Below are positions 1 through 51,019 of a DNA stretch of 64,000 nucleotides, one piece after another. Position numbers and translations under genes: made by a program. Positions within the stretch are counted from its first letter, which is position 1, and every line of letters begins with the position of its first letter. Source of the DNA: Cyanidioschyzon merolae. Lineage: Eukaryota. The notes beneath the pieces are model-generated. The model saw only the letters and a list, made by a program, of their open reading frames with translations. It did no database searches and was not told the DNA's origin. The stretch is from the NCBI GenBank assembly GCA_000091205.1, contig AP006490.2, one strand, 5' to 3'.

Positions 1-1856
1 CTCGCACTTTGTGACATCTAGGCCTGTATCGGGCAGCGCGACTTATTTTGCAAACGTTCAAGGTAGATGAAGTGAAAGACTTGGTCGTGGGGATGCATTC
101 CGGGCCGAAAGCGCGAAACTGCCGGTGCGGTATCCCAAAGTCGTGAGGAAGGAGCCAAACCCCTGAACGTAAACCAGAGGGAGCTATCCAGCATTTGCAT
201 TGCCCGGTATGATCGCGAGTTGGGCATCACGGATGCGCGAAGGCATAGCAAGGAGTGGAATGATGGCATCAGGGCCTCGTTCGTATGCTCTGAGCACCGT
301 ATCGAGCTAAGAGGTACGCTGTGTACGATTCATTCAGTGGGCACAAGGCATGTCCATGGCTCATGTGGACGAACTTTGGTTGAAGCATATAGGACGGCGC
401 TGGGGTCACCAACGCTTGCGGTTGGACAGAGACAGGAGGCACGCACTCGCGCCCTTCTTCGATGAGCTGGAAACCGACTTGACCGATACCTGGCGTTGTT
501 TCGTGAGAGCGCATAGCGCTGGACGGGCTGTAGCGTGCAAACGCTGCACTCCTGGTTTCATCGACGAGGTCCTCTAACGAGTGCAGGAATCAATTCTATT
601 CGATGCCCATCGATGTGTTCACGACGACGCGTATGCGTTAAGAGTCCGAATGCAGGCTGAAACCGCAATACTAGAATAGCACGAAACACAGCCGGATGCG
701 TTGGATGGTGCGTGATACACGCAGCAAATTTCTGATGGAGAGGCAGTCGCAGATGAGCCGCTTGCCACGGTGTGATGCCGCAAACCACCACGCGTACAAG
801 CACTATCTGCATCCAGACTCGAGCGCCGCGATCAACATCCGGAATTGTCTCGAGCCTCGGCAGCGTCCAATGACTTGGCGAATTTTCGAGCGAATCGTTT
901 CGTGCTCACCGTTGGCACTATGCTGAGACGCCGCGGATCGTAGAAGAAAAGATTAGTCATCAAGAAAGGCAGGCTTCGATTCTCGCCCACAGCTCGACAA
1001 TGCCATGGTACCGTCCAGCGATCCAGCAATGCTCGAGCGCCGCCCATATGTACACGAACCTCAAGGGCAAGTGGTGAAAAACAGCAGTGTCCTGGCATTC
1101 GAAATTAGTCAGTATACGCGGATCCTCTGGGATGATATTACCTGTGTTGACGATAATGCTGGATGAAAAACGAGTGCACCAGCGAGAGAGAACGATCATC
1201 ATGCATACGCACGGAAACGCAGTACCGCAAGGCACAGCGCTTTTCTACCGACGTGTCGTCGATCACGGGTAGACCTTGACCTAGCCAACGGGTGCTAGCG
1301 TTGCCTCCAGTCCAACCAATTCGTCACCGAAAATACCGGGACTTGGCCTCGTGCAAGCACTGAGAGTCACTTGGGGCTAGCATTGACCGCGAGCATGTTC
1401 ACGACCATACCGCATTCCTAGAGTGAACGATGCCTGCTTGAATGATCTGTTCTCTAAAATCTACCTCCCTTGTACTCCATCAACGAAACTGGTCCCTACT
1501 TCTGTATGTGTTCTTCTCTGTCAATCTTCGACTCGTATCCAGCTGCTGACATGAATGCAGTTGCGAACACAGGCAGAGTGCATGCGACCCAAGCCCGCTC
1601 GCTGCCGCATGCTCGTTCGCTTCGTCATCATCATCATCAGCGACATCGACATCAGCCTCTTGACACGACCTACAGGCTTCTACACTGAACCTGGTGCCGT
1701 TGTTGCACGGTGCTGGCCTAGTGGTGTTCCCGAGTATATCGGGGCGTGCTTGCATTAGTACCTTTTTAACTGCGCACAAGCCCGTGAGAGGCCCGGCGCT
1801 GTCGCCATAGACGCACGACACCTGAAACGTCCAGTCGAGAGCACGTCGTGTGACAA

Positions 1857-4619
1857 GTGCTCAGAGCGCTGCTCGCGAGGTTGATGTTTGGTCTTGACCT
1901 GGCCAATGTCTCCTCTTTGTGTTGCTCAGCTTCGATCAGTGCATGGATGATGCTTTTCGTTCGAGTCATGCGTATGGTGTATTGTATGCTAGCCGCGCAA
2001 CGACACGCTCCCTCAACAGGAGCCCAAGCAGGAAACATATGCAAGAAGTCAACGCGTTCCGTTCGACTGCTGCTACTACTGCTGCTCTGTTCTAGTCTGA
2101 TGGACCCACAAAGCGCTCCCGGCCACGGAACAGTGGTCAACAACGGTCTGTACCTGTTTAGAGAGGCTTATACACCGACTCCGCACGACTCACCCGAGTT
2201 TCCGAACGCAACGCTGCCGTCGGCATGGAAGCGCTTCAACTACCATACCTATAGCAGCATGGTGATCACGCTAGCACGCTTAGCGTATTCATATCCTGCT
2301 TTTGCTCGTCTGTACACGACACAGGCAGCATTTGGACTACCAGCAGCTGGCGAATCATGTTCTATCGACACGCACCAACCCATGAGCCAAGAGGCGTTAA
2401 CGGGACTCGACCAGAAGCAGCGCCTCGCTGTAAAGCGCCTCATCGAAGAGCTTCGCACCCAGGATGGTCTGTCACGCAACGCTTGCCGTGTATGGGTACT
2501 CGAGATCGCCGACAGGTCTTCGGTTGCCCAGGGATCCGTCGGAAGCGTGCTGGATCCTCCAGCGATTCTCATTTCTGGTGCATTGCACGGTGATGAGCGC
2601 ATTGGCCCGACTGCGGTTACAGAGCTTGCACGCGTGCTCCTCGAAGCAAGCCGGCTGCCTGCGGGTTCAGTGGACACTCATCGTTGGCGCGCCTCAGCTG
2701 CCGAAGAAGCCGACGGATCCATTTTCGGTAGCACTGCGGGTTCGCTGTCCTCGTGGCTGCGTTTCCTGGTCGGACACCGACGTATCACCATTGTGCCTGC
2801 AGCCAATGCGATAGGGTTCGCGCTCGGCGAACGCACCGAACTGGGTGTCGATCCAAATCGGGACTTTCCCTGGAATCAGCCATACGGGGCGTCATGTTTG
2901 GAAAGCGTTGCCGCTCGCTCCATTCATGAACTCGTTTTAGCAAATACTTACCAAATGATGCTGACGTTTCACGGTGGAACAACGGTAATTGGTTACGAAT
3001 GGGGCGACCTGACGCATTGCCCTGAGCAGCAGTATTGCCGTCGCAACTCGCCAGCCCCAGATATAATTGCCATGCAAACGATTGCTTACGCTTTGCGATT
3101 GCATGCGGGGAACGGGACGCGTTATGGGGCGCGACCCTTTGACATCGGGACAATGGGCGATACCGTTTATCCGGTGGCAGGTGGAATGGAGGACTGGGCG
3201 TACGGCGCATCGGCCCCGGTGCAGACGTCACTTGTCTCGATTTGTAACGCGAGCCGATACGGCGGCTATGCACCCGTTAAAGTGCAGGCAGTGCGGCAGC
3301 TCCCCGTAGCGCGCATGATTGCCCTGCTCATCGAAACCGCTGATGATAAGCAACCTTCTGTGGAGACATTGGGCGTTCGACCGTTGGGCGCTGCCGGCAA
3401 TGCCCCCTGGCAGGCCGACGTTCGACTCATCACCGAAACGCCAACAGTGTCCGCGGATGGCTCGGAGTCAGATTCTGAACTGGTTGTCGAAGGGCACGTG
3501 TGGCGGAACTTGCGCCTCGCACTCCAGGCTATCGATATCCTGCAACCGTATGCGGCATTCACACGGTATCCCGGCGATGGACGAACGCAAGCAGCGGACA
3601 ACGCGACGGCCGCATCAATAGTCTGTTGGCGGGTCGGTGGAGCATACCACGTTGCTGAGACGCAGTTGCAAGGATGGTACGACTCTGGGGCTGCAGCGAG
3701 GATACGGCAGAATCAGGACAGTGCCCCGGACTTTGTGAGCGAGGCCTTCATAGACGCGTCTCCCGATCCGGTACCTTTCTTTCCAGCTGTTCGACTAGGA
3801 CAGGGTACCCGCTGGTCTCCTGATAATCATGGAGGTCGCGAGTTTTGTGTGAACCTCCAGCAGCAGCAGCAGCAGCAGCAGCAACCGTTCACCGGAGCAA
3901 AGCGTCCGCCACGGGGCTCCAGCATCCTGCTGCGCGTGCGCTTCCAGGCCGACGTCGACTGGGGTCGCTTACCGCCGAGTACGCTCGGAGCGCAGCCACC
4001 AAACACCAGGCCCTGGAGTTTTCTCGCCCAAAGTCGTGTGGAGTACAACTCTAACTCCACTAAATTTGCTGACGAGCGTCCGTCCACGTCCGAAGAAGAC
4101 GGTGTCGCTCGGGGCACAAACTGGTTCTCACGTGGACTCCACTGCCGAGCGTCTGAGGTGAGCACAGGGCATCAGCCGCAAGTCTGGACCTGCGTGCACA
4201 GTGAAGTCGCTAGAGGAACCGAATTAGGCGAGTCAGGGGCCATGTCCGGCTGGAGCAAGCTTTTGTTGGCGATCTCCGTCTTCCTCCTGGCGCCAGGGTC
4301 GTTTCCGCTGCTCCTGTTTCTCAGCTTTCTACTTTGGCGTCTGGTGCGAGGCCAGTCTGTGCATCCCGCTGAGGTATGGTTTGAGGCACGTCAACGAATG
4401 GAGATGTGGATGCAGGGACTAAGGGCGTTGGGACGGGCGCGAGGCCCAAGTGGAACTCGAGTTTCTGGGTCGTTTGCGCGTTCCACTGACCTCGACGACA
4501 CGAAACGCCGTATGCTTTCGCCGACAGCCAGCAGCGCCGCCGCAGCCGAGCGAGACGCTAGCAGCAGTGCACATGACCTGGACTTGGAGGCGAGCACGCG
4601 GCGCCCAGACAGGCCCTGA
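1857..4619 (+). CDS. Secreted M14 zinc carboxypeptidase. The catalytic domain is in the first ~480 aa. It is fused in the same ORF to a ~440-aa low-complexity C-terminal extension containing a Q9 tract and a hydrophobic TM-like segment. The true start is probably the ATG near 1986, which precedes a signal-peptide-like 'RSVRLLLLLLLCSSL'.
   Basis: M14 motifs read directly in the translation: zinc-ligand 'LHGDERIG' (HxxE), 'GVDPNRDFPW' (cf. GVDLNRNF), 'FHGGTTVIGYEWGD' (second His region), 'GGMEDWAY', 'LLIETADDK' (catalytic Glu region). The N-terminal 'YHTYSSMVITLARLAYSYPAFARLYT' is typical of the family. The C-terminal half has no recognisable domain. Confidence 0.7.
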   Translation: MLRALLARLMFGLDLANVSSLCCSASISAWMMLFVRVMRMVYCMLAAQRHAPSTGAQAGNICKKSTRSVRLLLLLLLCSSLMDPQSAPGHGTVVNNGLYLFREAYTPTPHDSPEFPNATLPSAWKRFNYHTYSSMVITLARLAYSYPAFARLYTTQAAFGLPAAGESCSIDTHQPMSQEALTGLDQKQRLAVKRLIEELRTQDGLSRNACRVWVLEIADRSSVAQGSVGSVLDPPAILISGALHGDERIGPTAVTELARVLLEASRLPAGSVDTHRWRASAAEEADGSIFGSTAGSLSSWLRFLVGHRRITIVPAANAIGFALGERTELGVDPNRDFPWNQPYGASCLESVAARSIHELVLANTYQMMLTFHGGTTVIGYEWGDLTHCPEQQYCRRNSPAPDIIAMQTIAYALRLHAGNGTRYGARPFDIGTMGDTVYPVAGGMEDWAYGASAPVQTSLVSICNASRYGGYAPVKVQAVRQLPVARMIALLIETADDKQPSVETLGVRPLGAAGNAPWQADVRLITETPTVSADGSESDSELVVEGHVWRNLRLALQAIDILQPYAAFTRYPGDGRTQAADNATAASIVCWRVGGAYHVAETQLQGWYDSGAAARIRQNQDSAPDFVSEAFIDASPDPVPFFPAVRLGQGTRWSPDNHGGREFCVNLQQQQQQQQQPFTGAKRPPRGSSILLRVRFQADVDWGRLPPSTLGAQPPNTRPWSFLAQSRVEYNSNSTKFADERPSTSEEDGVARGTNWFSRGLHCRASEVSTGHQPQVWTCVHSEVARGTELGESGAMSGWSKLLLAISVFLLAPGSFPLLLFLSFLLWRLVRGQSVHPAEVWFEARQRMEMWMQGLRALGRARGPSGTRVSGSFARSTDLDDTKRRMLSPTASSAAAAERDASSSAHDLDLEASTRRPDRP
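3858..3884 (+). repeat. (CAG)8-CAA microsatellite encoding a Q9 tract inside the carboxypeptidase ORF.
   Basis: Direct reading 'cagcagcagcagcagcagcagcagcaa'. The antisense frame gives poly-Cys, which is an artefact. Confidence 0.9.
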
Positions 4620-7109
4620 AATGCGTCCAATTGTATGCACTGCATTGCTTGTATTTATCGTCACATAACGTGACGAGTTACGCAGGAGTTTTCGCCACGT
4701 GTACCCGGGTATGTTTGGGCCGGATACCCGGAGACCGCACTTTGCTTGTATTTCACGGTATATATTGAAAGATGGAGGGCGATGCGCGGAGCGCTCCCGG
4801 AGTCGTAACTACATTCATTTCGCGGACTTGTTGTTGGTGTCATGAAACCGCTTCAGGTCAGTTGCCGCATGCCTGCGGACGACGTGTCGCTCGGGTGGTT
4901 GCCCGAGTAGCGCCGCGATACGCCCGCTCCTGGTGCGCATCGCCAGTGGAGGCGTTTCCATTTGGGTTGTACTCCTGCTCGAGTGATCCACGGCGATGAC
5001 AGGTATCCAAAGTGCTCACGTAAGAGTGACTTGCATGGATGAATGATGATGGTGAAGTGCTGCGATGCGTCGGAAGCACCGTTGTCCGTCTGAATCGTGT
5101 GCGCTGCTTTCGTTCTGGCTGGAGCGGAATGATCTATTTCGGGAAGGAATACGCGCAGTATCGCTGGGGCCGCTGCAGACCTCGCTTCGATAGATGCTGG
5201 CGCGTTACTTGCGTTTTCTTGTACGACATACCCGAGAATACTTTCGATGCTGCAACGTCGAAGACGTAGAAATGCTGCAGCAACTATTCGTGTTGCTGTT
5301 GCTGTGTAGGCGTCTTTGTGTACAGCCAGGCTTGTGCGCCCGTGTTCGTCATCGTCGATCGAGGCATGTACACAACCATTCTTTTGGACCAAACGCTCCA
5401 CTTATGTGACGGGTACCGATCCGAGCAAGGATTCCTGGAAGCATGTGCGTGCATACGCGGGCTCTCTTCCGGTCTCGTGACCAGACGGTCGTCCAGTGGG
5501 ATGCTGGTACCGCAATCAGCGCCGCAGTGCTTGCGAGCGGCTCGCATGCATCCAAACTCGTTCGCCGTTCACGATATCATGCCATGGTGCGATGGAAATT
5601 AATTCTTCATCGTCTTCAATACGGCTAGGAATTAAGCTGGGGTACGGATACGCTGCTGGCGAGCGCGTTTCAGCGGACGTTTGGCTCACACGCTGACGCT
5701 GCTCATTCAACGGTACATGTGCCCGACGCGCCTGCACTCGCGACAGCGGCGCGCTGTAGCGAGCGGCTTGCCACGAGATGCCAAGTCGCGCACAGCAGTA
5801 GAACGCTGACGTGCTGCAACGACTCGTAGACGCTGGGCCCGCGCATTCGCCCTGCACCGTCGTACCAGAGCAGGCGCAGGGACGCGTCCGGATGCAGGGT
5901 GTTGAACGTACGAGCGTTTTCCAAAAATATACAGAAATGTTCCGTTTGTGCTAGATGAACAAGGAATACCAGGCGTGTACTGTCGCCCGATCGGTGCTTG
6001 CGAGCCACATCCAGTAGGGAAAAAATGTACATAAATGTGCTGTATTGTCTAGACACCCTGATGACACTTGGCATGCCCGCTGCCTCGTTGCCATTTGGAC
6101 CGGGAAGCGCGGAACGGCGGGCGCGCAGACACCATGCCTTGCCCGCCTGGCATCAGCGCTAGCAGCGCAGGTGCGGGTGACGTCTTTGAACTCGAGTATG
6201 GTCTGCCGCCGCTTTCTGCAATCGAATGCATTTTCGCATTGTATACCATTAGATCGAAATGAGCATGCCGTGTACCGAACAGAACGTAGACATGTTGCCT
6301 GCAGAAAATGTTCTGCAATGAACAGTGCAACGAGGACTGCATTCTTCACTCTATTCAGTCGTACTGCAGTGCTCTGATGGTTGAGGAATATTGAAAGAAA
6401 GAAGGATATGCGCTCCGTGCCAAAAAAGATAGGCTTAAAGACTGATTGCGTTCAATCGTGGAACAACGATGCGTTCATCAACTTATGGAACGCAAAATCG
6501 ACGATAGCAACGGCAACGAGTGTCTCCGGTTCTGATCAGATTGTCCATGTTCTATTAAAAACACTGGAACACAGTCCCAAAAATACTTCTGTTTCACGCA
6601 CGGGCATCTTCCACCAAAGTCGTGACGATAGCGTTCCTGGAACGTTACGATCGGTATGAAGCGCAAGGACGTAGGGTTATGTTTTCAGTCGGTGAGACTC
6701 GCTTCGGACGAACCGTTCGGAGCGTATACGGGAATTTGCGGAGCACGGAGCCCGTTCTATGCACGATCGAGCTCGAAGAGAAGGCTCATACATCAGCACT
6801 CACTCTCTCGAATCAATGAAGGATTTTGCCGGACGTCTGACGACCTTGCTCTACTGGACAACGTCGCATTTCACCATTTCCCTTCGCTTTGGAGCTTTTT
6901 GCCGATGCAGTCGGGGTAGAGCTGCTTTTCATTTATGTGCACGCTTCGTGGTCGAACCGCATCAAATGAGTTGTTTCTGTCATGAAACGTAATGATCGCT
7001 TCACTGGTCGAATCCCTGGACCATTCAGTATAGCGTGAAACACTGGGACACTAGTCGTCATTCCTGCGCAAGTCCGTCTCCGCCGGGAAGGACCTCACCA
7101 AGGTCCATA

Positions 7110-7585
7110 AAGAAGTGCGTTCACTATGAAGAAATAAGAAATCCAAGGGGTGAGCTGGGGTGCAAAGTCCTGCAGGTCGAGATGGCTAAAAAGCAGCGGA
7201 GCCCTGATGATATATAGAAAAGTATGGAGCGCTGAGAGAAGAGGAAACGAAGGGATGGCGCAAGTTCGAGGACTACTCGCACTGGCGGGTTTAAGCGGCG
7301 AGGGCAATAAACACGTGGAGTTCGTGAACCGAGACTTGAAAGCTGCTATCAATATCAGGAGATGCACGGTGCTGGAATGGAGACCTCCGGAGCTAACACG
7401 ATCCATCTCTGTAGGACAAACTTTTAAGGTGGAATTATACGATAATGTGTTGAAATCAGTTGTAGGCGGCCGGTCCAAGACGACGGAAACACGTCTGTAC
7501 GTCAGTCGGAGACGTTTTGTCTAGGGCGCTGGTCGCCTGCTACTGTACACCGTTGGCGTCGTTCGACTTTAGAACGGCGTTTGTC
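7110..7585 (+). mobile_element. Family-I Fanzor/TnpB-like element, 3' fragment (copy A). It covers the zinc-finger-like region, the RuvC-III motif and the conserved 3' terminal block, and is degenerate.
   Basis: The translation 'RGELGCKVLQVEMAKKQRSPDDI ... AQVRGLLALAGLSGEGNKHVEFVNRDLKAAINIRRCTVLEWRPPELTRS...VVGGRSKTTETRLYVSRRRFV*' matches copies B and C. It ends in the shared block 'ctagggcg...ctactgtacaccgttggcgtcgttcgact'. Stops and frameshifts are present. Confidence 0.6.
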
Positions 7586-8178: not shown

Positions 8179-10975
8179 GTGAGTTTCCGATCTAGGACAC
8201 TTGCTTTCCGCTGCAGCGCGATGCGAACACGCATGTGCCAATGCGGGGTGTCGGACACGTGTCCTTCATCGATCGGTGAGGCGTCTCGCGCGGTGCACGC
8301 ATCGCGCTCGGTGAGTGCACCTCGTAGATCGGGCAGTCAACTGACACGATGCGCATGCCGCCGTTGAAGAGTAACGCGATTGGGATCAGTAGCGTGTAGC
8401 TGTAACGTAAAAGCTGGATTTCAGGTGAGGTCTTAGCCAAGTACAGTCTTTCAGTTCATTTTTGTTTCAGCCCTCAAACAAGTGTATTCAAGTGTTTTTT
8501 TCGCAGTGTATAACAGAAGCGTTCAAAGAGCGTTCTTGTTCAAAAAAACTAAAAAAGGAAAGATATGAAAAAGCAAGTCGACGATCCTGGAGGCACAGGG
8601 TCGCCGGCTGCCAGAAAAAAAAACAAAAATCAGTACCGAGTCCAGAGGAAAAGGAGGAGAAGAGGAAGGACCGAAATGGGGAGGTCCTACGTCGAAGGCG
8701 ACAAGAAAGACGACTTTACGACCAGATGGTGGATAAAAGCTGTCTTCTTAAACATATCTATGATCCCTACAGGGAAAAGTTGCGAGACGCTATCAAAGAA
8801 CGTGTTGCGTCATACTCGAAGAGTATTGTCAAGGCGTCATCAGGACTAGTGCATTTGGCGAGGGAGATGTATCGCGACGTGGCGCACATGGAAACGGTCG
8901 AGATTCCGGACGAGTTTTTCGACAAGACCTGTATTCGTCACCTGATGGTTGGTAGCGAGGAAGCGCGGAGGGAAAATATGCTATTGCATGCCCTGCACGA
9001 AAACATCGCGGAATTCTGCTTCGAGGGTACCCCATTCAGGGGTGACCCGGATATTTACACATACGGGGCGATGAAGTACCTCACGAACCTGAAGAACCTT
9101 TTGACAATGAACCTGGACCGTTTCGTAGTACGCGCCGTATTTTTGTGCTCTACCCGCGCGTCTCTCGCAACGGGATATGGACAATTTCAATGCCATCACG
9201 AAAGATCGTAAGCATGAATATGAGGTCGAATTTGTCGACAAGAAGCCGTCACGCAGGAGAGCAAATGATGATTCCGTCATCCGTTTGGTCATACAAGAGC
9301 ACCGTGCGGTACTGGGGTTGGCGAATCCAACAGAAAGGATATCAGAGTTAAAAAACGATAAGGAAAGATACGATCGCCTCATTCTGCGGTATTTAGTGCT
9401 TCTAGACCTAGAACTTGAATGCAAGGCAGAGATGAAGCTGAGTGGGGAAAAATGAAGAGTGGGAGAGACGGAAGGCTTTCCTTATGGGTAAGCGCTTCAA
9501 CGTCGTACCAGTGTGCAACATCAAGTCGCATTTTGTGACCGTCGACTCCATAGTCCTTTACAGCATCATGATGGAGATCAGTCCGGAGTTGAATGTTAGC
9601 AGGGAGGAGTTCACCGGCGAAAACCGGGAGACGTACTGGAAGAGCATCTTCGATTTCAAACGTCTCAAAGTAAGCAAACAAAAGGTATTCACTGGGATGA
9701 TCGAAACCGATGGAGTAGCCATGTGTGTACACTCTCGGCGGTTGAAGAAAGATCGTCCTGGCCCGCCTTTGGCTTCGCCCGTGACGAAGGATGAAGAAAA
9801 CAAAGAGGAGGATCCTGCGATGTAGGAGGTAGTGGGCAACAACGTTGCCGTTGACGTGACGAAGTATGAAGATGAGAAGGAGGCGGAACCTGCGACGCAG
9901 GAGGTGGAGGATAACGACCTTGTCGTTGCCGCGGCGAAGTATGAAGATAAGAAGGAGGCGGATCCTGTGATGCAGGAGGTGGAGGATGACGACTTTGCCG
10001 TTGGCGCGGACCCCGGAAACACAAATATCATCACCATCGCAGCACCGAAGCGTGCGGAAGATGGTACTGGCGGCAACTTACGCCAGAAAGACATGTGACT
10101 TTTGAGGTTCTCGAGCGCGAAATACTATCGAGAATCGGGAATAATGAATGCGAGGAAACAATTCGAGATATGGTATGCAGGAGTGAAAGCGCATTTGAAG
10201 CGATCAGCCAGGTGACGAGCCGTGGAACGAACTTTGAAGCTTTTCGGATATTCGTGAAAGTTCGTGTTGCCCATTTGGAGGCGCTGTGGAAAGAGTATAT
10301 AAAGCCCAGATGGGCTCGTTTGCGTATGAATCTGTACTGTGGTAAGCAGCGTGCGTTCGCGAACTTTTTCAATCATTTGAGCACCCTGAAAGAGGACAAG
10401 ACTCAAAGGCTCGAAGTAGCGTATGGGGAGGGGCGCTGGCTCACCCAAAAAGGGTACACACCAGTTCCAACGACAAGAACTTACTAGGAGTGCGCAAGGC
10501 GTTTCGTTACGGTACCGATCGATGAGTTTCGAACATCGTACACACACCACGAGCTGGGGTGTACACTTCAGTGGGTCGAGATGGAAAAGTGTCAGCGGAG
10601 CTCTGAAAATACAAAAAAGTACGGACCGCTGACGGAAGAGCAAATGGAAAGGAGGGCGAAAGTTCGAGGGCTACTCGCATTAGTAAGTACAGTCAGTGGC
10701 AAGAAACGTATCGAGTTTGTGAATCGTGACTTTACCGCAGCTATCAACAGAACGAGATGTGCGGTGATGGAAGGTAGACCGCCAGACTAGACAAGAGAGA
10801 ACTTTGTTGGACAACCTCTCAAAGTGGAATCATATGAGACAAACTTGAAACAAGTAGTAGGTGGCCCGTCGAAACAGACTGGCACGCGTCTGCACTTCAG
10901 TTGGAGCCGTTTTGACTAGGGCGGGTCACTCGCCACTACTGTATACGGTCGGCGTCGTTCGACTTGCGAACGGCA
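8179..10975 (+). mobile_element. Family-I Fanzor/TnpB-like element, full-length but degenerate (copy B). It has a ~385-bp 5' leader, a ~2.35-kb nuclease ORF broken into at least six frames, and a conserved ~60-bp 3' terminal block. The right end lies ~63 bp upstream of the VAMP7-like ATG.
   Basis: Nucleotide and protein collinearity with the inverted copy at 45852-48498 over the whole length, including the non-coding leader (8179-8565 vs revcomp 48115-48498). Boundaries are set where similarity to the other copies stops: 'cgtgagtttcc...' on the left and '...gtcgttcgact' on the right. Confidence 0.7.
8565..10917 (+). pseudogene. Fanzor/TnpB-like RNA-guided endonuclease pseudogene (copy B). It starts 'MKKQVDDPGGTGSPAARKKNKNQYRVQRKRRRRG...' with an NLS-like basic cluster and is interrupted by several frameshifts and stops.
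   Basis: The segments collinear with TnpB are a RuvC-I-like '[24 protein letters not shown]' (cf. 'GIDLGxxxxaTxS'), a RuvC-II region '...RLEVAYGEGRW...', a 'PIDEFRTSYTHHELGC' block (cf. 'VdpaYTSQtCsxCG') and RuvC-III 'KRIEFVNRDFTAAINRTRC' (cf. 'DRDxNAAxNI'). Confidence 0.65.
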
Positions 10976-10990
10976 TTCTCTAGCGGTGCC
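10880..10990 (+). ncRNA. Candidate omega-RNA / right-end scaffold of family I. It spans the 3' end of the nuclease ORF plus the conserved terminal block. This is hypothetical.
   Basis: The ~60 bp immediately after the stop codon is conserved in all three copies: 'ctagggcgNNNNNNNcactactgta(c/t)acggtcgg(c/g)gtcgttcgact'. In TnpB/Fanzor systems the guide RNA is encoded at exactly this position. No expression data are available. Confidence 0.2.
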
Positions 10991-13337: not shown

Positions 13338-13547
13338 GTATCCTTAGGACTCACCCAAATACACTCCAACATGCATCACACAAACGCATCCTACCATAAA
13401 AAGCTGCATGAAGCGCCCCACTAGAGAAACATCCCGCTGTGTACCAGCAGCACCGCATCGATGGTGCACGCGGCATCGAGTTGCGCGCCTGGCGGGGATC
13501 GCCACAGCGCCGCCTCCAGCCGCCGCGTCGACGCCGGACACGGCAGG

Positions 13548-13672
13548 CAGGTATACAGGGATACAGGTATTCAGGGATACAGGTATTCAGGGATACAGGT
13601 ATTCAGGGATACAGGTATTCAGGGATACAGGTATTCAGGGATACAGGTATTCAGGTATACAGGTATACAGGT
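13548..13672. repeat. 16-bp minisatellite (GGATACAGGTATTCAG) x~6.5, with degenerate flanking units. It sits in the ~350-bp divergent intergenic region between the PGM-like and RanBP1-like genes.
   Basis: Direct reading of 'cagggatacaggtattcagggatacaggtattcag...'. Confidence 0.9.
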
Positions 13673-13686
13673 AGGTAGATAGATAC

Positions 13687-14559
13687 GTGTGTTCCTCAGT
13701 TTCAAGGACGGCTGCTGCACAGCGCTTTTGGACCGCGATCAGAGCAGCTGGCTCTAACATGAGCGATCAAACTAGACAATTCTCGGAGAAAGAACAGGAG
13801 AGCGCACAACCTCGCAAGGAGGAAGCAGTGCGTTCATCGTCACCGGAGCAAGCATCGCGAACACCTCCTGCGCCTACCGGGTTTCGTTTCGTCGTACCTA
13901 CCACTGCCACTGCTACTGGTGGTGATGCTGGTCAAGGTAGTGATCGTGAAGCGAATCAGAGCGCTGCACCGGTGAAAGCTCCCCAGGTCGTTTTTGGCGG
14001 TGTCACCGAAAGCGTCGACCAGGACGTTGGTGCCGCTGATGACGACGGTGCAGCGGAGACGCTCGGCGAGGAGGACGCCTCGACTGCCGACTGGAAGCCC
14101 CTGGTGCAGCTTGACTTGGTTCAGATTAAGAGCGGCGAAGAGGACGAGGATGTCGTAGCAAAGTATCGAGCAAAGTTGTACCGCTTTGATAAGAGCATGC
14201 GAGAGTGGAAGGAGCGCGGCACCGGCGAGATCAAGTTTCTCAAGCACCGGGTCAGTGGACGCATCCGCCTGCTGATGCGACGCCAACAGACGCTGAAGAT
14301 TTGCGCCAACCACTACCTTTTACCAGAAATGCGACTGGAAGAGAATATGGGCTCAGATCGATCCTGGGTATGGACGGCCGTCGACTACGCGGACGAGGAA
14401 CGCGACGAGGCGGTTCTAGCGATTCGCTTTAAGGACTCGGAAACGGCAAAGCGGTTCTACGATACCTTCGAGGAGCTTCGCAAAGAGATGCAAAGTTTGC
14501 TTGTATCCGGCAAGTCGGCGACAGAACAATCGCGCCAAGGTGAGCAGACGGCAATCTGA
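13687..14559 (+). CDS. Ran-binding protein 1 (RanBD-containing, RanBP1-like). The ORF start is probably downstream of the listed one.
   Basis: RanBD core 'EEDEDVVAKYRAKLYRFDKSMREWKERGTGEIKFLKHRVSGRIRLLMRRQQTLKICANHYLLPEMRLEENMGSDRSWVWTAVDYADEE...AIRFKDSETAKRFYDTFEE' matches the RanBP1 consensus (WKERG[TV]GD[VL]K[LI]L.H, KICANH, [AS]IRF). Confidence 0.8.
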   Translation: MCSSVSRTAAAQRFWTAIRAAGSNMSDQTRQFSEKEQESAQPRKEEAVRSSSPEQASRTPPAPTGFRFVVPTTATATGGDAGQGSDREANQSAAPVKAPQVVFGGVTESVDQDVGAADDDGAAETLGEEDASTADWKPLVQLDLVQIKSGEEDEDVVAKYRAKLYRFDKSMREWKERGTGEIKFLKHRVSGRIRLLMRRQQTLKICANHYLLPEMRLEENMGSDRSWVWTAVDYADEERDEAVLAIRFKDSETAKRFYDTFEELRKEMQSLLVSGKSATEQSRQGEQTAI

Positions 14560-20117: not shown

Positions 20118-20559
20118 TAGGGTGCCGATCCTCTTGGTCTTTGGAGCTTGCGCGTGCCGTCAGGGTGCAGGTCGCCGCTCGCGAGTTGCGTTCCGGTACG
20201 CAGCGCAGCGTCGCTCCCTGCCAGGGACGAGTGCAAGTGAGACGCCTCGAGGGAACGTCGCGAACGCCCGAGTCGGTACGCTGTGACGGTTCCTGTTGAA
20301 AGATGCGAGACCGCTGCGATTGATGAGCAAGCACAAGCGAAGCAGCCAAGAGAAGAGCGCTGTAACGCGGGTCGGAAGACGTCTCTTGAAACACGACATC
20401 GCCCTGGGGCCGCTGAGCGCTCGACGCGTTTCAGACGAACATCGGGCGATGAACTGGTCGCTCGATACCTGCTGGGGGATGTATTTTTCTCGAACTGTTT
20501 TTTTAAATGTATCGTGTCGATCGTAGACGAGCGGTAATAAGGGCTTACGGGTTCGTAAG

Positions 20560-21700
20560 TGGTTTTAGGATTGTGGGTCGTGTTGCACAAGTGGCTGCTT
20601 CGACGCTTTGCTGCTCGATTTCGTTAAGGGAATCAAGATGATTCGCGATGCTTTTGTAAACCAGATTCCTAGAATACTCGATTGCTTGATGCAATTCGTA
20701 TGTTCAAGTCTCCACTCTTGTCCTTTGCTTACATTTCGCATGATGAAATCACGCTTTTTTCAAGTTTTCCTATTTCTTTTTTCGAAGCAACTGGAGAGCG
20801 CAGCAATACTTTCCACTGGATTGACGAGGAAAACAAGTCGACGTTGTCAACGAACGACTTGTTCACGAGCTCGTGTGTCCAGTGTCTGCAGAACGATTCA
20901 CGTCCCATAATCGGTTCGGTTCGAAATACGCACCTTAGGTTCTTTGTGGCCGTCTGGGAAGCGGCATTCGACACCAGCTTGGTATATCTGTTCAGAGACA
21001 CTCCATGCGGTTCCCGCCTCTTCTTTTCACATGGAAAAGGGTATTGGACACGGACTCCAGTCACTTCAGCGATCGCTTTCCGCGGAGCGCATGTCTCTGC
21101 TTTCAAGGAAGCGAGCTTGGACAGATCGAAATTTCTCGGCCTGTTCTCTAGTCTTTAGTTCTGCTTTTATTTGTTTCATCCTGGAAAGCATTGCGTCGCA
21201 CAGATCCTCCACCGAAAGCAAGCGTATGTGCTTGCAGATGCAGCATACTCGCCAGGTGTATCGCCACAAAGACGCCCGTACCCTTGGGTACCGCACTGGG
21301 CACGTAAACGATGGATAGGTACGTCTGGACCTGTCAAGGACGTGTACCGAGCGACGGCGCTAGCCCTCTGGTGCCACACGGCATCTCCTGAAACAGAAGG
21401 CACAGTGAACTTGCGGGAACACCTGACCACATGGAAGCGTTGCTGCTACGAAAGCCGCACCGAGGCCAGATACGAACACAATGAGAATGGCGAGCGAGTC
21501 GTCATTGCAACGACCGTCGGTGCATGAAATGCGTCGACAACAACCGGGAGCAGCGATATCGAGACTTGAATGCGGCCATCAGCATCCTTCAACTACGAAA
21601 AACGGATCTGGAAGCAGAGGTGAGACGGTGTTAATGACATCGGGAGATCAGAAAGGAGCAGAGAAAGCAGTCGCGGAAAAAGTCCACAAGAACTAGTGCT
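20560..21700 (+). mobile_element. Family-II composite element, copy a. It carries degenerate coding segments (seg A, seg B) and a TnpB/Fanzor-like C-terminal remnant. It lies in the intergenic region between the Nup155-like and USP-like genes.
   Basis: Seg A 'VKGIKMIRDAFVNQIP' (~20650) is similar to 'VPGIRVIRDALEQAFV' in copy b. Seg B 'DTPCGSRLFFSHGKGYWTRT' (~21020) is similar to 'SSDFCLRCLHGEGSWTYS'. The micro-ORF ~21485-21633 is 'EWRASRHCNDRRCMKCVDNNREQRYRDLNAAISILQLRKTDLEAEVRRC'. Its composition is AT-richer than the flanking genes. Confidence 0.5.
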
Positions 21701-22819
21701 GACGCTCTGGTTACCAGACGCATCCCACTTTATGCTTGCATGGGTGCAATTACTTACAGGTTTTGCGGTAGAGTCGCTGGACAAAGCGTTGCTGGATCGA
21801 GCGAGTACGCATCGCTACGTGGAAACCCCCAGACTGCTTTTGATGAAGTGTTCAGAATTTGGTCAGGGAAATGAAGTCTTCTCTCCCAATAGAGGCAGTG
21901 TTTGCGCTTTTGTTACCTTGCAACGAGCCGCGTCTTTGCTATGTTGTGAGAAAACAGCCAAGAATGCTATGGTCCAAGACACGACGCATGCGACAGTTCT
22001 GGGTTCCACGGAGCTCGGCCCTTGAAACACGATGAAATGGACCTCAAGCTTCGACGTATACCCCGCAGTCTTTACCTGAATCAAAGTGTGTTTCAGGAAC
22101 GCCATCATTCACAGCGAATAGCCTGAAGGCAGCGCTCATGGTTTCTCGTCTTCCTCAAGTGAGAAACAGGGTGAAGAAAGCGACACCCATGGACCGTACG
22201 CCAGAATCCGTTCCCTTGCGCTGCTCTCTCTCTCTCGCGCGCCCTGCTGGTGAAGGTGTGCGCAAAGCCTCAGCCGAGTTCCGCAAAACTTTGGTAGCTG
22301 GCGGGGAACCGCGTTCTTTGGCCCTGCATACCGAGAGCGGATCTACAGCGTAACGCCATGGGAGCGTCACAAGCACCCGTCGCACTGCACTTGATCGGAT
22401 GTTGAAGCACCGGTGTGATGACCACCACCAGCAGTCTCACGGGATACAGTGCTTGAATGACTCATGATTTCCCCAGTAAGCGACTATTCGCAGTGCCCAT
22501 ACGCTCCCGTCTCTCAAGTCGTGATCCAAAAAAAGCGTCGCACCGCAGCGTGCTCGCAGACGCTCGGAAACGCCAGTGATGATACCACGTTTCTGAGACA
22601 GGTTTGCAGCACCCGGCCCTGTTGCCAACGATAAAACCGCAAGCCTCTGTTGAGGCTGCACGACCTGACGCGAATGCGCCTGGAGCAGCGCAGGAACACG
22701 CCACGAATGTGCTTGTCCCGGGCATCCTCCAGTCCAGTAATCCTGCGTCTCCTGCATGGATCCGAGGAATTCCATCAATAGGTCGATGCGAATCCCTTAT
22801 CCACCTGATTTGTTGGACT

Positions 22820-26122: not shown

Positions 26123-26307
26123 CCCAGAAGTGATGCTTCCCCACTTCGCTGGTTAGTTGACCCAGTACTCCAACTTTGCGCCCAACTTGTGATTCTTGGG
26201 ACGTTTCTGAGCGCCGTCACCGCACGTGTTCTGCGGCTTCGTAGCACGTGTTTTCGGCTACCGGACAAGCATTGATGCCTCTTGGCGTTCGCGCGGCAAC
26301 GGGGCGA

Positions 26308-26530
26308 TCACCAGCAGCTGTGCAGGGCTACATCCACAGATACGACTCTATGGGCTGTATAAGGTGTTGCTATCTAGCGAGATGTATGCTTTCAATGAAA
26401 TTACCAGCAGCTGTGCAGGGCTACATCCACAGATACGACTCTACGGCCTGTATAAGGTGTTGCTATCTAGCGAGATGTATGCTTTCAATGAAATTACCAG
26501 CAGCTGTGCAGGGCTACATCCACGAGTCCT
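26308..26530. repeat. 93-bp tandem repeat, ~2.4 units, ~190 bp upstream of the USP gene start.
   Basis: The unit 'accagcagctgtgcagggctacatccacagatacgactcta(t/c)gg(g/c)ctgtataaggtgttgctatctagcgagatgtatgctttcaatgaaatt' is repeated at ~26310, ~26403 and ~26496 (partial). The overlapping ORFs show a repeating 31-aa string. Confidence 0.85.
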
Positions 26531-28737: not shown

Positions 28738-29029
28738 GGTCGCCAGCAGACAGCCGCACCAAAGTACACGGCCTCGGAATAGCGCTCACCCCCGAGTGAT
28801 AGGACTGGTGGAATTCGCGCGATTGCTCCCGCGCTCGCCGCGACATCGACGCGCGTGGACACGCCACCCGGGGGTCCAGGGACGGTCGATAGTAGCGCCT
28901 TGTCGTTTTTTTCTTATCGTTACACCGGGGTTAGGTGAGCATGGGACATTGAACAGCTCGCTCTATTTATGTGTTGAGCATGTTTCTCCCACCTTTTTAT
29001 TAGGTACACGGCGTTGACACTCGAAGTGG

Positions 29030-30240
29030 ATCAATTAGGGTGTGAGGAATCGTAGGTAGATATGGGATTCCTGGTCGTATGTTCGGAATGGCTCCGTCGA
29101 CGCTTTGCAGCTGGAACTCGCGACGTTCCTGGAATCCGGGTGATTCGCGACGCACTCGAACAAGCATTCGTAAAAAAACCGATATCATTATCAGATTCGT
29201 ATTTGCGGGCCTCTACTGTTCTGCTCTCCTTACGTATTGCATGCTGCAATTACGAATCCGCCAAGTTGTCGATCTCTGTGTGTCAAGGTAACTTGTGGGG
29301 GCAGCAGTTCGCACTGCTGATCCAACGAGACAAAGCTAGGCGTCTTGTTTGGCGGCTTGTCCACAAGCACAGATCGAACGTTCTCTGAACTTGACACATC
29401 AAGGAATCGTTATCGTTCGCAAGGCAAATCCTCCTCGCCTAGCGAACATCAACGAAACAGTATTCGACGTGGGCACGATACCTCTGAAAGGATATGTTTC
29501 GAGTGACTTCTGTCTCCGCTGTTTGCATGGAGAAGGGTCCTGGACGTATAGTTGAGTTATCGCGTGAATCGCTTCCAGTGCGGAGTCTGTCAACGCTGTG
29601 AACGCAGAAAGCGTGCAGGGTTCACAGCGTCTCGACTTGCTCTAGTACCTGAATCGTTCATCTGGGTCTTGTTTCATCATGGGAACCAACGCGTTCCACA
29701 AATCCTCTATCGAAAAGGAAGGCTTGCACTTGCATGTGCAGCACGCAGCGTACTTGCCGAGGTGATCGTCCAGAAAAAGCCCTTAATCATTGGACACGGC
29801 ATCGGGCACTGAAACGCATGAGAGCATCGAGGGTAGCCCTCTGTACCCGTCAAGGGCATATACCGAGCGATGAAGCGAGCGTACACGCTCCACTGGTCAA
29901 CGCCTGGAATAGCAGGCGGCCTTATGGGAGTATGGGGAAATCTGACGCGAATGAAGTGTCAGCACTGAGCACAGCGCACCGAGACAGTGTTTGAAAAAGA
30001 TGCAAATGGCAAGCGAGGCGTAGATCGCCATCACCGCCAGTGCATGAAATGCGTCGACAACGACAGGAAACTGCAAAATTGGGACTTGCACGCCAAAACC
30101 AATATCCTTCAACTGCTGGCAAAGGAGCTGGAGCGACCGGAGAGACCGGCATTTTGAACGCCAGAGATAAGCGTGTTGGGAATGAAGCAATGGCAGGAAA
30201 AATCCGCAATTCCTGTCGTTGATGACAATATGGCGAAATC
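29030..30240 (+). mobile_element. Family-II composite element, copy b. It has seg A, seg B and the TnpB/Fanzor-like C-terminal remnant, and lies between the Rho GTPase gene and the next plus-strand gene.
   Basis: Seg A 'FLVVCSEWLRRRFAAGTRDVPGIRVIRDALEQAFVKKPISL' (~29062-29200). Seg B 'GTIPLKGYVSSDFCLRCLHGEGSWTYS' (~29470-29555). Remnant ORF ~29969-30157 '...NGKRGVDRHHRQCMKCVDNDRKLQNWDLHAKTNILQLLAKELERPERPAF'. Nucleotide similarity to copy a extends over ~1.1 kb. Confidence 0.5.
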
Positions 30241-30585
30241 CAGACGGTAACGTCTACGCCTAGTTTGGCTCAGTGGGTCTGTTCCATTTTATTCTGACCT
30301 GGGTAGTGTAGTCCATCGTTGTTTCATAGGCCGCATGGGCAAAGCGTCACCTCATGCGGCTCGCCATGCGTTTCTCGTTCGACTGGCGCTTGAATCTCGC
30401 ACCAACATCAAACGTCCAGAAATTGTATGGTGCGCTCAATTTCCTACCATCTCAGACTTGAGTTCACTTCGAACATAATCAAACGCTGAAGCAGCACTGA
30501 AGCTGAATCCTCTATTCTCGGAGCTTTTCACTATGCTAAACTGACTTGGGACCCGTCGGCAAAGTTTTGAAATAGTAGCGACAGC

Positions 30586-32847: not shown

Positions 32848-33794
32848 AAAGGAAACGCGCATCGTGCAGTTCCGGATGAGATTGGCAAGCCGCCCCCGCA
32901 CCTGGACGCGTAACGTACGTGGTGCCGCTGCCGCCGCCGCAACAGCAGCAGCGAGCATGCCCTGAATACGCTACGCATCGCTCCGAATCAGAAAAAGAAC
33001 AGAAATGGACCACGAATTACCGGTTAGAGAATCGTATCTTTCCTGCTATACGGTTCGCGTTGACCGGTTATTCGAAATTTTACGTTCTAGGCGGAATGCT
33101 CCGCTAGCAGGACGAGTCTGCCAGGATAATGTTTCGTGCTCCCGCCAGCGACAGGTGATGTAGCGAGACATGAACAACTCGTCCGCAACGCTCTTTATTC
33201 TGCGACTAGGGACAGTTAAGGTGCGTATGGGCGCCGCCCATGTTGCAATTATCTCCTAGCATATCGCTTCGCGCTGCCTGCAGCAGCGCGTCTGCCTGCA
33301 CAGCTTGCAGGCTCCGAAAATGATAAAGAATCCCGACTCCGTATCAGGTGAAGCGTTCCTCGATCCGACGCTCTCATTGGTATGGCAAAGCCGCTCTGTC
33401 TCTGTGCTGCATCCGTGCCAGAGGCATTGGCGCTATTGCTGGTGCTCAAAACAGGTACTCTGCGCAAGACGGAACGCACGGAACGACCATTATCTCTGAG
33501 GGGCATTGTGCATACTGGAACTCGGACGTAGTGCTACGCATGACAGACGCTTTCACCAGCACCGATATCCATCACGTAACCTGGAGCTCCTTACACAAAT
33601 ATATCAACGTTCTGTCGATCGAAATCGATATTCTCTCAGTATCTCCGAGAGGATGGATGGGTAATGGACCTTGAACATACCGCGAAGCATGACAGGCGCT
33701 TTCACGGACACCGATACTCATCACGGAACCTCGAGTTCCAAATCCAAATATATCAACGTTCTTTCATGTAAGAAACAGGATCGCCCCCGAATCG

Positions 33795-39030: not shown

Positions 39031-39899
39031 TGCCGGACGGGGGCTGTTTTTTGTTCCACCCGTGGACACCAGGAATAGATTCCGCAACAGGTTGCGCTTG
39101 CGATAGCGCGGAGGCATTCGATAGCTTTATCTCGTGACGCTGATTCAAACAGTGGTTTCGGGGGCGGGACAACAAAGTCGTATGGGTGCGCCTGAAGCGT
39201 ACCCAGGGTTTCCCCGGGTACGCTTCACGAATTGGCGCTTCTGTAGCCGGTGGTTGCACTCGGAGCTAGCCAAAGTCGCGGACAAGGGTGCGTTCCCGAA
39301 AAACCAGCGATCGCCATTGTCGATGAATCCGCGGGCATATTACCGAGAACAAAACCTCGACGATGCAGAGGTGCTCCTTCTATGGGTATAGAAAAAGTGT
39401 CGTCCGGTGATAGATGTTCCATGCATTCGACTTGCATTCTGGCCTCTGTCGTTGCAATGAGACGGAAAACACTGGTTGTCCGAGCAGCGGCGCTACCCTG
39501 CCAGGATTTCCATGTAAAGCCTGACTGTGGTTCCGAATTCAGGGAATACTGCAGAAACAAGGATCATCGCCTTTGGTCTCATCCCACGATTGGCAATCGC
39601 TTGTTTCCCCGAAACCGAAGACATGCTGTTTGCAAGCCAGAACCCTCGGGTAAATGTCCATGGTCGTGGCAAGCCTGGCGGCAAAGGTGCTGAGGCAGGC
39701 ATCCCTTGAAGCAAGGCCCTTGTAAGCATCGTGATGCAGCATGCTTGACGCCTCTGTTTGTCGTCAAGGTCGGTTCCGTCGGAAACGTTTGGTGCGTCCA
39801 CGTGCGAGGGCACGACATCCGTGTCGGATTCAGGTGGGAAACTGAACTACTGGCTCTGTTCCAGCACTTTGATTTCTTTCGAACTTTATGATAGATGCA

Positions 39900-40450
39900 T
39901 AGTCTTGGCATTTGCAGTTCAGTGGCAGACGCTCACAGATTCATTCGTTTTTTACGGAATTTCGGTCGTCACTTTGGCGTGGTTTCTGCGACGGTTCGCT
40001 GCTGCAATTCGATACGTCACAGGAATCAAGGTGATTCGCAACGCCGTCGAACAAGCGTTCATAGCGTAACCGGTATCATTATAGAACCCATGTGTGCGAG
40101 GCCCCACGCTTCTATGTTGCTAATGTATAGGTTGCTAAAAAAAGCGCATTCATCGAACTCTTAATCTTCTTGTTTGAAGGAAGTTCATGAACCGAGTAAT
40201 TCGCGCGGCTTCATTGACGTGGACAGATGCTCGGTGTGGTCCAGTGACAATTCCTTCACCAGCTCTTACAGAAAGTTCACTGAAGTTAACATTCCGACTG
40301 AAGGATTTTCTTCAAAGGACGAATCCGCTGGAATTTTATGGCCATCGAAGAAACGGCATTCAATACCAGCGTGATACCTCTTACAGGATATGCTCGTGAA
40401 GGCTCCTGCCTCCCCTGTGTCCCTGGACAAGGGTCTCGAACTTGATTCAT
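39900..40450 (+). mobile_element. Family-II element, copy c (seg A and seg B are clear; the 3' part is degenerate), in the intergenic region downstream of the Tab2-like gene.
   Basis: 'WFLRRFAAAIRYVTGIKVIRNAVEQAFIA*PVSL' (~39985-40085) and 'GYAREGSCLPCVPGQGSRT' (~40390-40445) align to copy b at both the nucleotide and protein level. The segment ~40590-40720 ('ACACSGEHANQC...RIQVSILDQ') is only weakly similar to the zinc-finger/RuvC-III remnant. Confidence 0.4.
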
Positions 40451-50689: not shown

Positions 50690-51019
50690 ATAGAACAAGT
50701 GAAGTCTACGACAAGGAACATTATTATTTGGCGCGCAGCATTCCTGGCGCCCACATGTGCTCAATTTACGTGCGTACGCACTTGCCAGTGTGCAGGCGTA
50801 TGCGTCCATCATACCATTGCGTGCGGAAGCGCTACTTGGCAGCCTTGAATGCAACCTAAAATTCCTCCGATGGGCTGGCATGTTTGCTCACGCTCTATCC
50901 GTAGTAGATTCGATTCGAACGCGGGCCCGCACGCATTGTTGCTGCCTGTCGATTTTCTCCCCGAACTTTTCTTAAATGGTCAGCCTCGACATTTGAAGAG
51001 CAGCAAGAAAGGCACACGG

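Follow-up and report, generated by a model that had tools for sequence, protein, structure and literature searches.

Decayed repeats of Cyanidioschyzon merolae that join a mariner-type transposase remnant to the C-terminus of a Fanzor1 protein

The 64,000-nucleotide stretch of Cyanidioschyzon merolae DNA analyzed here (the window) carries a repeat family, referred to as family II, whose five members are very probably dead, neutrally decaying copies of a non-autonomous derivative that arose by internal deletion from a transposon with a mariner-type transposase gene and a Fanzor1 gene. Family II is a further example of this known kind of transposon. It holds a fragment of a Fanzor gene and not a Fanzor gene, it is without present coding function, and no active nuclease is encoded.

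Five copies and their decay

Self-comparison of the window with blastn and a search with an nhmmer profile identify five copies of family II, four on the plus strand and one on the minus strand (Table 1), and the profile detects no sixth copy within the window. The elements are ~1.33–1.39 kb long and are collinear, and they occur in both orientations in different intergenic contexts, clustered within 35 kb. Pairwise DNA identity among them is about 53–68% overall and 53–63% in a MAFFT alignment, with local identity of 65–77% in BLAST comparisons. A previous sequence-only reading had described four copies of a ~1.1-kb element; the places that it gave are real, but the count falls one short through omission of the minus-strand copy e, and the extents need revision, since copy c had been confined to 39900-40450, copy d had been carried to 52060 when it is recognizable only to the point given in Table 1, and the element itself is longer than was supposed. 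The same reading was right that the repeats are AT-richer than the host genes, with GC contents of 0.47–0.51 in the copies and 0.55–0.60 in neighboring genes. The window is eukaryotic nuclear DNA of ~55.6% GC with few introns, and its host genes include those for a Nup155-like nucleoporin, a UCH deubiquitinase, a kinase, and a plastid Tab2 homologue.

All of the copies are full of stop codons and frameshifts. Similarity between copies is present in all six frames and mismatches between them give no signal of codon periodicity, which together are the signature of neutrally decaying DNA; the missing periodicity and the many stops and frameshifts likewise indicate that no copy is under selection. 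Decay also accounts for the earlier description of three coding-like segments in different frames, which are frameshift artifacts: in copy b, the best-preserved one, the transposase part (29004-29708, with seven in-frame stops) and the Fanzor part (with four) each occupy a single frame, and the transposase part of copy d is similarly in one frame, with two stops. A 1-nt deletion near 21500-21520 splits the Fanzor remnant of copy a into two frames and explains the impression of different frames there. The 3' part is missing from copies d and e.

An origin by segmental duplication of a host intergenic region, or membership in a domesticated gene family, would fit with the location of the copies within 35 kb of each other and with our failure to find a target-site duplication, but can be practically dismissed. 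Similarity between the copies stops sharply at the inverted-repeat arms, outside which their flanks are unrelated, both orientations are represented, every copy is interrupted by stops, the content is that of a transposase plus a Fanzor, and a further copy is present on an unrelated metagenomic contig (L001).

Table 1. Coordinates of family II copies and their parts within the window.
Feature	Position	Strand	Details
Copy a	20424-21750	+	nhmmer/blastn core 20500-21595
Copy a, candidate left TIR arm (decayed)	20424-20448	+	Consensus 5' arm ACACCCGTGTCAGATTAGCATCGGA
Copy a, transposase remnant	20507-21265	+	ATG (MYRVDRR..) to 'YSPGVSP'; at least 2 frameshifts; catalytic E and C-terminal ~54 aa missing
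Copy a, junction zone	21198-21266	+	Coding frame switches from transposase to Fanzor
Copy a, Fanzor remnant	21266-21634	+	GxG/PVK, 'EHLTTWKRCC' ([TS][TS]xxC), CMKC, RDLNAAISIL; stop 21632-21634
Copy a, candidate right TIR arm	21722-21750	+	~90 nt past Fanzor stop
Copy b	28922-30310	+	Best-preserved copy; nhmmer/blastn core 28998-30114
Copy b, transposase part	29004-29770	+	One frame, 7 stops
Copy b, junction zone	29697-29771	+	Equivalent of copy a zone
Copy b, Fanzor part	29771-30154	+	One frame; 4 stops over 29669-30154
Copy c	39815-41184	+	Both inverted-repeat arms recognizable; nhmmer/blastn core 39889-40999
Copy c, arms	39815-39830; 41169-41184		ACATCCGTGTCGGATT; reverse complement ACATTCGTGTCAGAAG; 13/16 matches
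Copy c, transposase part	39895-40660	+	
Copy c, Fanzor part	40661-41039	+	
Copy d	50897 to ~51690-51750	+	Left arm and transposase part; nhmmer/blastn range 50970-52061
Copy d, transposase part	50976-51650	+	One frame, 2 stops
Copy e	53912 to ~53130	-	Left arm and transposase part; nhmmer/blastn range 53835-52810
Copy e, left arm	53912-53897	-	ACACCTGTGTCAGACT
Copy e, transposase part	53830-53156	-	

Remnants of two proteins

The 5' ~760 bp of family II is a remnant of a DDE_3 (Tc1/mariner/IS630, DD34E) transposase. When the five copies are combined into a majority consensus, a single long frame emerges, starting MYSLDIRRAAIKAY, that matches the Pfam family DDE_3 (PF13358) with 29.8 bits, over the cut-off of 28.6. 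When this consensus is searched against a database of 5.8 billion proteins it matches P0001 (E 3e-27), P0002 (E 2e-20), and P0003 (E 3.5e-17), of which P0002 and P0003 are intact proteins of ~306 aa that start with MYSLD and carry DDE_3, HTH_Tnp_Tc3_2, and HTH_Tnp_IS630 domains. P0003 as query recovers 3286 relatives in an exhaustive phmmer search, and 128 of these, with DD34E spacing, were used to construct a family HMM of 308 positions. The consensus frame aligns with positions 5-254 of this HMM (157.9 bits, E 5e-47), from the MYSLD start and helix-turn-helix region at position 5 to the YSPxxNP at position 254, and the alignment stops just short of the catalytic glutamate of NPIE, one residue before its I-E. 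Copies a, b, c, and e are also matched directly, individual copies giving E-values of 1e-7 to 6e-6 and the best per-copy values ranging from 1.5e-7 to 2e-3; the direct matches on copy a lie at 20504-20898. The first two catalytic residues are present, as D1 (..IDETAF..) and D2 (DN/EN-IAFH, with the DN retained in copy d), whereas the third catalytic glutamate and everything beyond it are deleted, such that the complete D-D-E triad is not found in family II. The transposase belongs to a 'MYSLD...' DD34E group that is found mostly in metagenomes.

The ~370 bp following the transposase part corresponds to the C-terminal ~130 aa of a Fanzor1-type protein. This part drew attention through short peptides, all of which are present exactly as the sequence-only reading had quoted them: WKRCCYESRTEARYEHNENG in the copy a ORF at 21171-21527, MKCVDNNREQRYRDLNAAISILQL in the copy a ORF at 21524-21634, and HRQCMKCVDNDRKLQNWDLHAKTNILQL in copy b. 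Individually these are poor guides, as the single-copy peptides match no TnpB family in searches against Pfam and PDB sequences, and a full-length Fanzor HMM run on whole-frame translations missed family II. An HMM of the last 129 Fanzor positions ranks copies b and a at the top within the window outside of family I and Fanzor-remnant regions, with E-values of 0.027–1. Since single copies score weakly (best E 0.027), the Fanzor assignment rests on a consensus of four sequences, built from DNA only from copies a, b, and c together with the metagenomic copy L001.

This consensus restores one frame, including EHLTTVKCYRCAKRTETVFEEDANGKRGVDCNYRLCMKCVDNNRKLRNRDLNAATNILQL, that contains a single stop and runs as ...IAQKKPVTIGYGTGHGNGGEHRG, the stop, PSVPVKGVYRAMKRAF...GLWEHLTTVKCYRCAKRTETVFEEDANGKRGVDCNYRLCMKCVDNNRKLRNRDLNAATNILQLL..., before its terminal stop codon. 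It reads TTVKCYRC...CMKC...NRDLNAATNIL, and the TnpB/Fanzor C-terminal motif, [TS][TS]-x-x-[C4 zinc finger]-x(5,50)-RD (Bao & Jurka 2013, PMC3627910), is seen in it as ...LTTVKCYRC...(26 aa)...CMKCVDNNRKLRNRDLNAATNIL. Pieces of the motif survive in single copies, as TTWKRCC...CMKC...RDLNAAISIL in copy a, and as TRMKCQH with a stop directly after it, then ...CMKC...WDLHAKTNIL, in copy b. Against an HMM of 615 positions built from 62 homologues of an intact metagenomic Fanzor (that of L002, below) related to CMe-1, the consensus frame scores 29.7 bits (E 5e-8, Z=2544) at positions 480-586, a match spanning ~105 collinear residues, and eleven control frames all have E-values greater than 35. It also aligns with the C-terminus of the PUl-1 Fanzor1 of Pythium (E 2e-6). 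Its top Pfam match is PF07282, Cas12f1-like_TNB (E 0.015), although at 15.9 bits this is under the 26.3-bit cut-off, and it has no match among PDB sequences. The proposal that the CxxC pair and 'RD.NAA..I' mark a TnpB/Fanzor C-terminus is thus borne out by the HMM match of the consensus, as is the suggestion that the zinc ribbon has its first half in the upstream 'TTWKRCC' piece.

It could be argued that family II is nothing but a decayed Tc1/mariner transposase pseudogene in which CxxC...RD.NAA..I arose by chance in the 3' tail, since the single-copy peptides lack TnpB matches in Pfam and PDB and the motif of copy a overlaps a stop codon and is read in a different frame. We regard this as highly improbable: the 3' part of copy b is wholly in one frame, the transposase HMM aligns no further than position 254, the consensus scores E 5e-8 across ~105 collinear residues of the Fanzor HMM with no score in other frames, and the 'NRDLNAATNIL' of the consensus matches the 'NRDLNAAINIL' of the Fanzor family consensus. 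A chance match lying after the transposase stop codon was considered as a candidate and overturned by the single frame of copy b and the four-sequence consensus.

The remnant is, however, a partial one. No frame of family II aligns with Fanzor HMM positions 1-479, the RuvC-I and WED/REC part is absent, and the DNA in which the N-terminal part would lie is occupied by the transposase remnant. These observations bear on the previous view of family II as the remnant of a compact TnpB/Fanzor2-like gene, encoding ~350 aa or less and filling the whole ~1.1-kb element. The element is short, and the zinc-ribbon and RuvC-III remnant is real, but the view is barely credible given that the 5' ~760 bp can be assigned unambiguously to a DDE_3 transposase, that nothing upstream of the C-terminal match aligns in any frame, and that the best matches are to large Fanzor1 proteins of mariner-type elements and not to Fanzor2 or IS607-type proteins. 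Only the last ~130 aa are Fanzor-derived, and the affinity is with large (~580–700 aa) transposon-borne Fanzor1 proteins.

Related elements, the junction, and the termini

In all six relatives that were checked, a gene of 195–307 aa is followed directly, on the same strand, by a Fanzor homologue of 576–696 aa; the upstream gene is identified as a DDE_3 transposase in five of the six, and the gap between the two genes is 30–110 nt in the readable contigs. One of these relatives, L002 (ENA ERZ19565769 scaffold_10152), is an intact 3.08-kb element with 34-bp terminal inverted repeats (TIRs) at 59-92 and 3101-3134, a transposase gene at 103-1001, and a Fanzor gene at 1033-3006. Its Fanzor1 C-terminus reads ...VDEFRSTRVHHE...VRGLLWC...FVNRDLNGALNIRRC; the protein has 72 homologues, some with PF07282, and its family consensus ends ...KFVNRDLNAAINILRC. 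The Fanzor stop and the right TIR are 95 nt apart in L002 and ~90 nt apart in copy a. With a transposase-type gene preceding a Fanzor in six of six relatives, and TIRs in L002, family II is best read as an internal-deletion derivative.

At the junction between the two remnants, the transposase HMM alignment ends at position 254 (YSPxxNP) and that of the Fanzor HMM starts at position 480 (QKKPVTIGYG), the two abutting in different frames. The junction can be placed only within ~70 nt because two overlapping frames are both plausible there. An interpretation of 'AYSPG' as a chance overlap with the Fanzor frame 'ILYRK...' was set aside, as the extension of the transposase HMM to position 254 favors a real PPYSPxxNP, with the ~70-nt zone remaining ambiguous. 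Copies a, b, c, and L001 have the junction in common, and copy d in part; copy d retains the start of the region (LFHHGQHRI, a stop, and HILF, 51645-51686), beyond which similarity is lost, suggesting that it is either 3'-truncated or overwritten. L001, on its metagenomic contig, adds another decayed copy in which the chimeric layout is the same, which indicates that the junction predates amplification.

Candidate TIRs are seen at the consensus level only, with searches inside single copies giving nothing convincing. The 5' arm of the consensus and the reverse complement of its 3' end match at 20 of 25 positions, a number reached in none of 500 shuffles, and the candidate left arm lies about 85 nt from the ATG. 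A search with the arm pattern finds three matches where 0.84 are expected, with at least three occurring in seven of 100 shuffles. No TA target-site duplication is seen; the 5' flanks of the candidate arms are CG, TT, CG, CT, and CG, and the termini are too decayed to be placed exactly.

We propose that the ancestor would have been a ~3-kb Tc1/mariner/IS630-type element with short TIRs and two same-strand genes, the first for a ~300-aa DD34E (DDE_3) transposase and the second, after a gap of 30–110 nt, for a ~600-aa Fanzor1, a TnpB-like, RNA-guided nuclease. Through one internal deletion of ~1.75 kb it would have lost the end of the transposase, beginning immediately ahead of the third catalytic residue, together with the spacer and the N-terminal ~480 residues of the Fanzor, leaving the two remnants joined out of frame in a ~1.35-kb product that kept both ends. 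Presumably mobilized in trans by the transposase of full-length relatives, this product then spread to several sites, as the junction shared by a, b, c, and L001, and partly by d, shows; the source of transposase would subsequently have been lost, and the copies would have decayed by point mutations and indels. The 'zinc finger plus RuvC-III' peptide would accordingly be the fossil C-terminus of a Fanzor passenger gene. Neither the window nor the databases searched yielded a full-length parent with a Fanzor of this CxxC-bearing lineage.

A chimera could also be formed if two unrelated elements, a truncated mariner and a fragment of a separate Fanzor element, came together by nested insertion or recombination, with amplification afterwards. 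The junction joins different frames and cannot be mapped precisely, no full-length parent is seen, and the window contains a nest of transposable elements, at 6264-7579, where a transposase remnant adjoins a CMe-1A 3' fragment. Such an origin is nonetheless improbable, since the transposase-type gene and the Fanzor follow one another on the same strand in every relative checked, and since family II agrees exactly with that architecture in orientation, order, and stop-to-TIR spacing, making a single deletion the most parsimonious explanation. A more speculative, and rather unlikely, proposal concerns how the deletion derivative spread: it may have retained those parts that a Fanzor system needs in cis, namely the right end and the 3' Fanzor/omega-RNA segment, and been maintained by Fanzor-guided homing, provided in trans, in addition to transposase. 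If so, family II would be a eukaryotic counterpart of the bacterial non-autonomous IS200/605 derivatives. RNAalifold applied to the 3' regions of copies a, b, c, and L001, four decayed sequences that afford little power, detects no conserved RNA structure there, the consensus energy being -2.15 kcal/mol with 13 scattered pairs.

Fanzor lineages of C. merolae and comparison with known systems

A single Fanzor family of C. merolae is listed by Bao & Jurka (2013, PMC3627910), the ~3.2-kb Fanzor1 family CMe-1A, which has no detectable TIRs or target-site duplications and for which the superfamily was given as unknown. The other repeat family of the window, family I, matches the CMe-1A consensus at 84–86% at 8303-10954 (plus strand) and 45877-48351 (minus strand), and there is a CMe-1A fragment at 7151-7579; this match identifies the host as C. 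merolae. CMe-1A and family II reside in the same host genome, and one HMM matches the Fanzor1-type genes from which each is derived. The CMe-1A copies, however, are ~3 kb long, ~80–86% identical to the consensus, and include nearly the whole of a 734-aa Fanzor with a C-terminus lacking CxxC pairs, whereas family II is much older, at 55–68% identity, and has only the last ~130 aa, with CxxC...CxxC, plus the transposase remnant. Self-BLAST of the window shows no DNA similarity between family I and family II. The absence of similarity to CMe-1A and the retention of the CxxC pairs argue that family II represents a second, older Fanzor1 lineage in C. merolae, in agreement with the earlier suggestion that the window holds two distinct TnpB-like lineages.

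What looked like a weak TnpB motif in a compact red-algal genome is thus a true Fanzor fossil, and as such it implies that C. merolae has carried at least two Fanzor1 lineages, compared to the one reported in 2013. In a more modest version of the proposal on spread, a second Fanzor1 lineage, one with a zinc finger, was formerly present in C. merolae on a mariner-type transposon of the 'MYSLD' DD34E group, and this would suggest that the unclassified CMe-1A is also mariner-derived. Two observations support the latter: a transposase remnant at 6264-6990 lies directly upstream of the CMe-1A 3' fragment, and the CMe-1-like Fanzors in metagenomes all come after such a transposase. The chimeric deletion derivative ties Fanzor1 in C. 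merolae to a Tc1/mariner-type transposase family and offers a testable classification for CMe-1A. Our search of the literature for mariner elements described from C. merolae yielded Bao & Jurka 2013 alone, and family II may already have a name in Repbase. The value of these findings lies mainly in annotation and natural history, with no new mechanism shown. As to method, we note that a consensus of only four or five copies, ~60% identical, revealed two protein families that are hidden in single copies.

Fanzor1 genes have been described in the Mariner elements PUl-1 and PUl-2 of Pythium ultimum and PGv-1 of Phaeocystis globosa virus (Bao & Jurka 2013, PMC3627910). Like family II, these have a Tc1/mariner-type DDE transposase followed by a Fanzor1, and short TIRs, those of family II being candidates, and the family II consensus aligns with the PUl-1 transposase (E 6e-4) as well as with the C-terminus of its Fanzor1. 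Family II differs in being ~1.35 kb long, with ~1.75 kb missing (the transposase C-terminus and Fanzor residues ~1-480), and in being dead, with copies that have diverged by ~35–45% and no TA duplication seen at their decayed termini. In sequence, the family II transposase is closest to those of uncharacterized metagenomic elements with a transposase and a Fanzor, namely L002 and the contigs of P0003, P0012, P0035, and P0075 (28–29% identity, for the matches with E-values of 2e-20 and 3.5e-17). These elements share the architecture of family II, resemble its candidate arms in a TIR starting ..ACAC.C.., and have their right TIR at a similar distance from the Fanzor stop; unlike family II they are intact and full length, and their Fanzor C-termini mostly lack the first CxxC.

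Non-autonomous DNA transposons that arise by internal deletion are well known, with examples in Ds, derived from Ac, and in the deleted Tc1/mariner copies that give rise to MITEs. Family II resembles these in apparently keeping its termini, in having lost internal coding sequence, and in presumably needing transposase in trans, but it differs from them in that its deletion extends across two genes, with a chimeric transposase-Fanzor pseudo-ORF as the result.

Relation of family I to CMe-1A

Family I, the other TnpB-like repeat of the window, is by its sequence CMe-1A, the Fanzor1 element that Bao & Jurka (2013, PMC3627910) described from Cyanidioschyzon merolae. The match establishes the window as DNA of this alga. 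The 'direct repeat' partner of 10551-10977 is a 3'-end fragment of the same element. In copy 1, three tandem 75-nt units make the acidic 'KHEEKKEADPATQEV' tract within the Fanzor ORF longer than it is in the published consensus. A copy of the CMe-1A 5' non-coding part, in a region that also holds the partial tandem duplication D3, corresponds to the short TE-N2_CMe element of the same study.

Features of the window and of metagenomic contig L003. Identities are to the published CMe-1A consensus unless stated otherwise.
Feature	Position	Strand	Match
CMe-1A (family I) copy 1	8303-10954	+	84-86% identity
CMe-1A (family I) copy 2	45877-48351	-	84-86% identity
CMe-1A 3'-end fragment	7151-7579	+	77% identity
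Tandem 75-nt units in CMe-1A copy 1	9780-10004	+	77% identity between units
CMe-1A 5' non-coding part	33072-33584, 33637-33731	-	CMe-1A positions 33-543, 79% identity
Repeat D3	33488-33616 / 33637-33765		
DDE_3 transposase remnant	6264-6990	+	transposase family HMM E 6e-7
Fanzor remnant	~2-900	+	Fanzor HMM positions ~390-590
DDE_3 transposase + Fanzor tandem, intact	L003 3073-5761		

Further transposase and Fanzor remnants

A sixth and more diverged DDE_3 transposase remnant matches the transposase of L002, a metagenomic contig with an intact transposase+Fanzor element (tblastn E 8e-4), over a region that takes in a decayed ..LLFIYVHASWSNRIK.., equivalent to PPYSPxFNPIE. The position of this remnant, immediately upstream of the 3'-end fragment of CMe-1A, hints that the 'unclassified' CMe-1A family, too, originated from a mariner-type transposase+Fanzor element. 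At the window start is a strongly decayed Fanzor remnant, whose profile matches are split over three frames with domain E-values of 5e-6 to 0.3.

Two simple tandem arrays, of a 16-nt unit CAGGTATTCAGGGATA (~10 repeats, 13516-13695) and a 93-nt unit (2.3 repeats, 97% identity, 26307-26523), occupy intergenic or short-ORF regions.

Metagenomic relatives

Just beyond the intact element of L002, at the contig end, is a tandem array of a ~20-nt CCGTCAAAGTACCATCGTTA-like unit (3490-3610). On the long contig L003 (JGI 3300071567, 40.9 kb) a YqaJ-type exonuclease gene adjoins the intact tandem; the surroundings of this transposase+Fanzor element family may here be those of a virus or giant virus.
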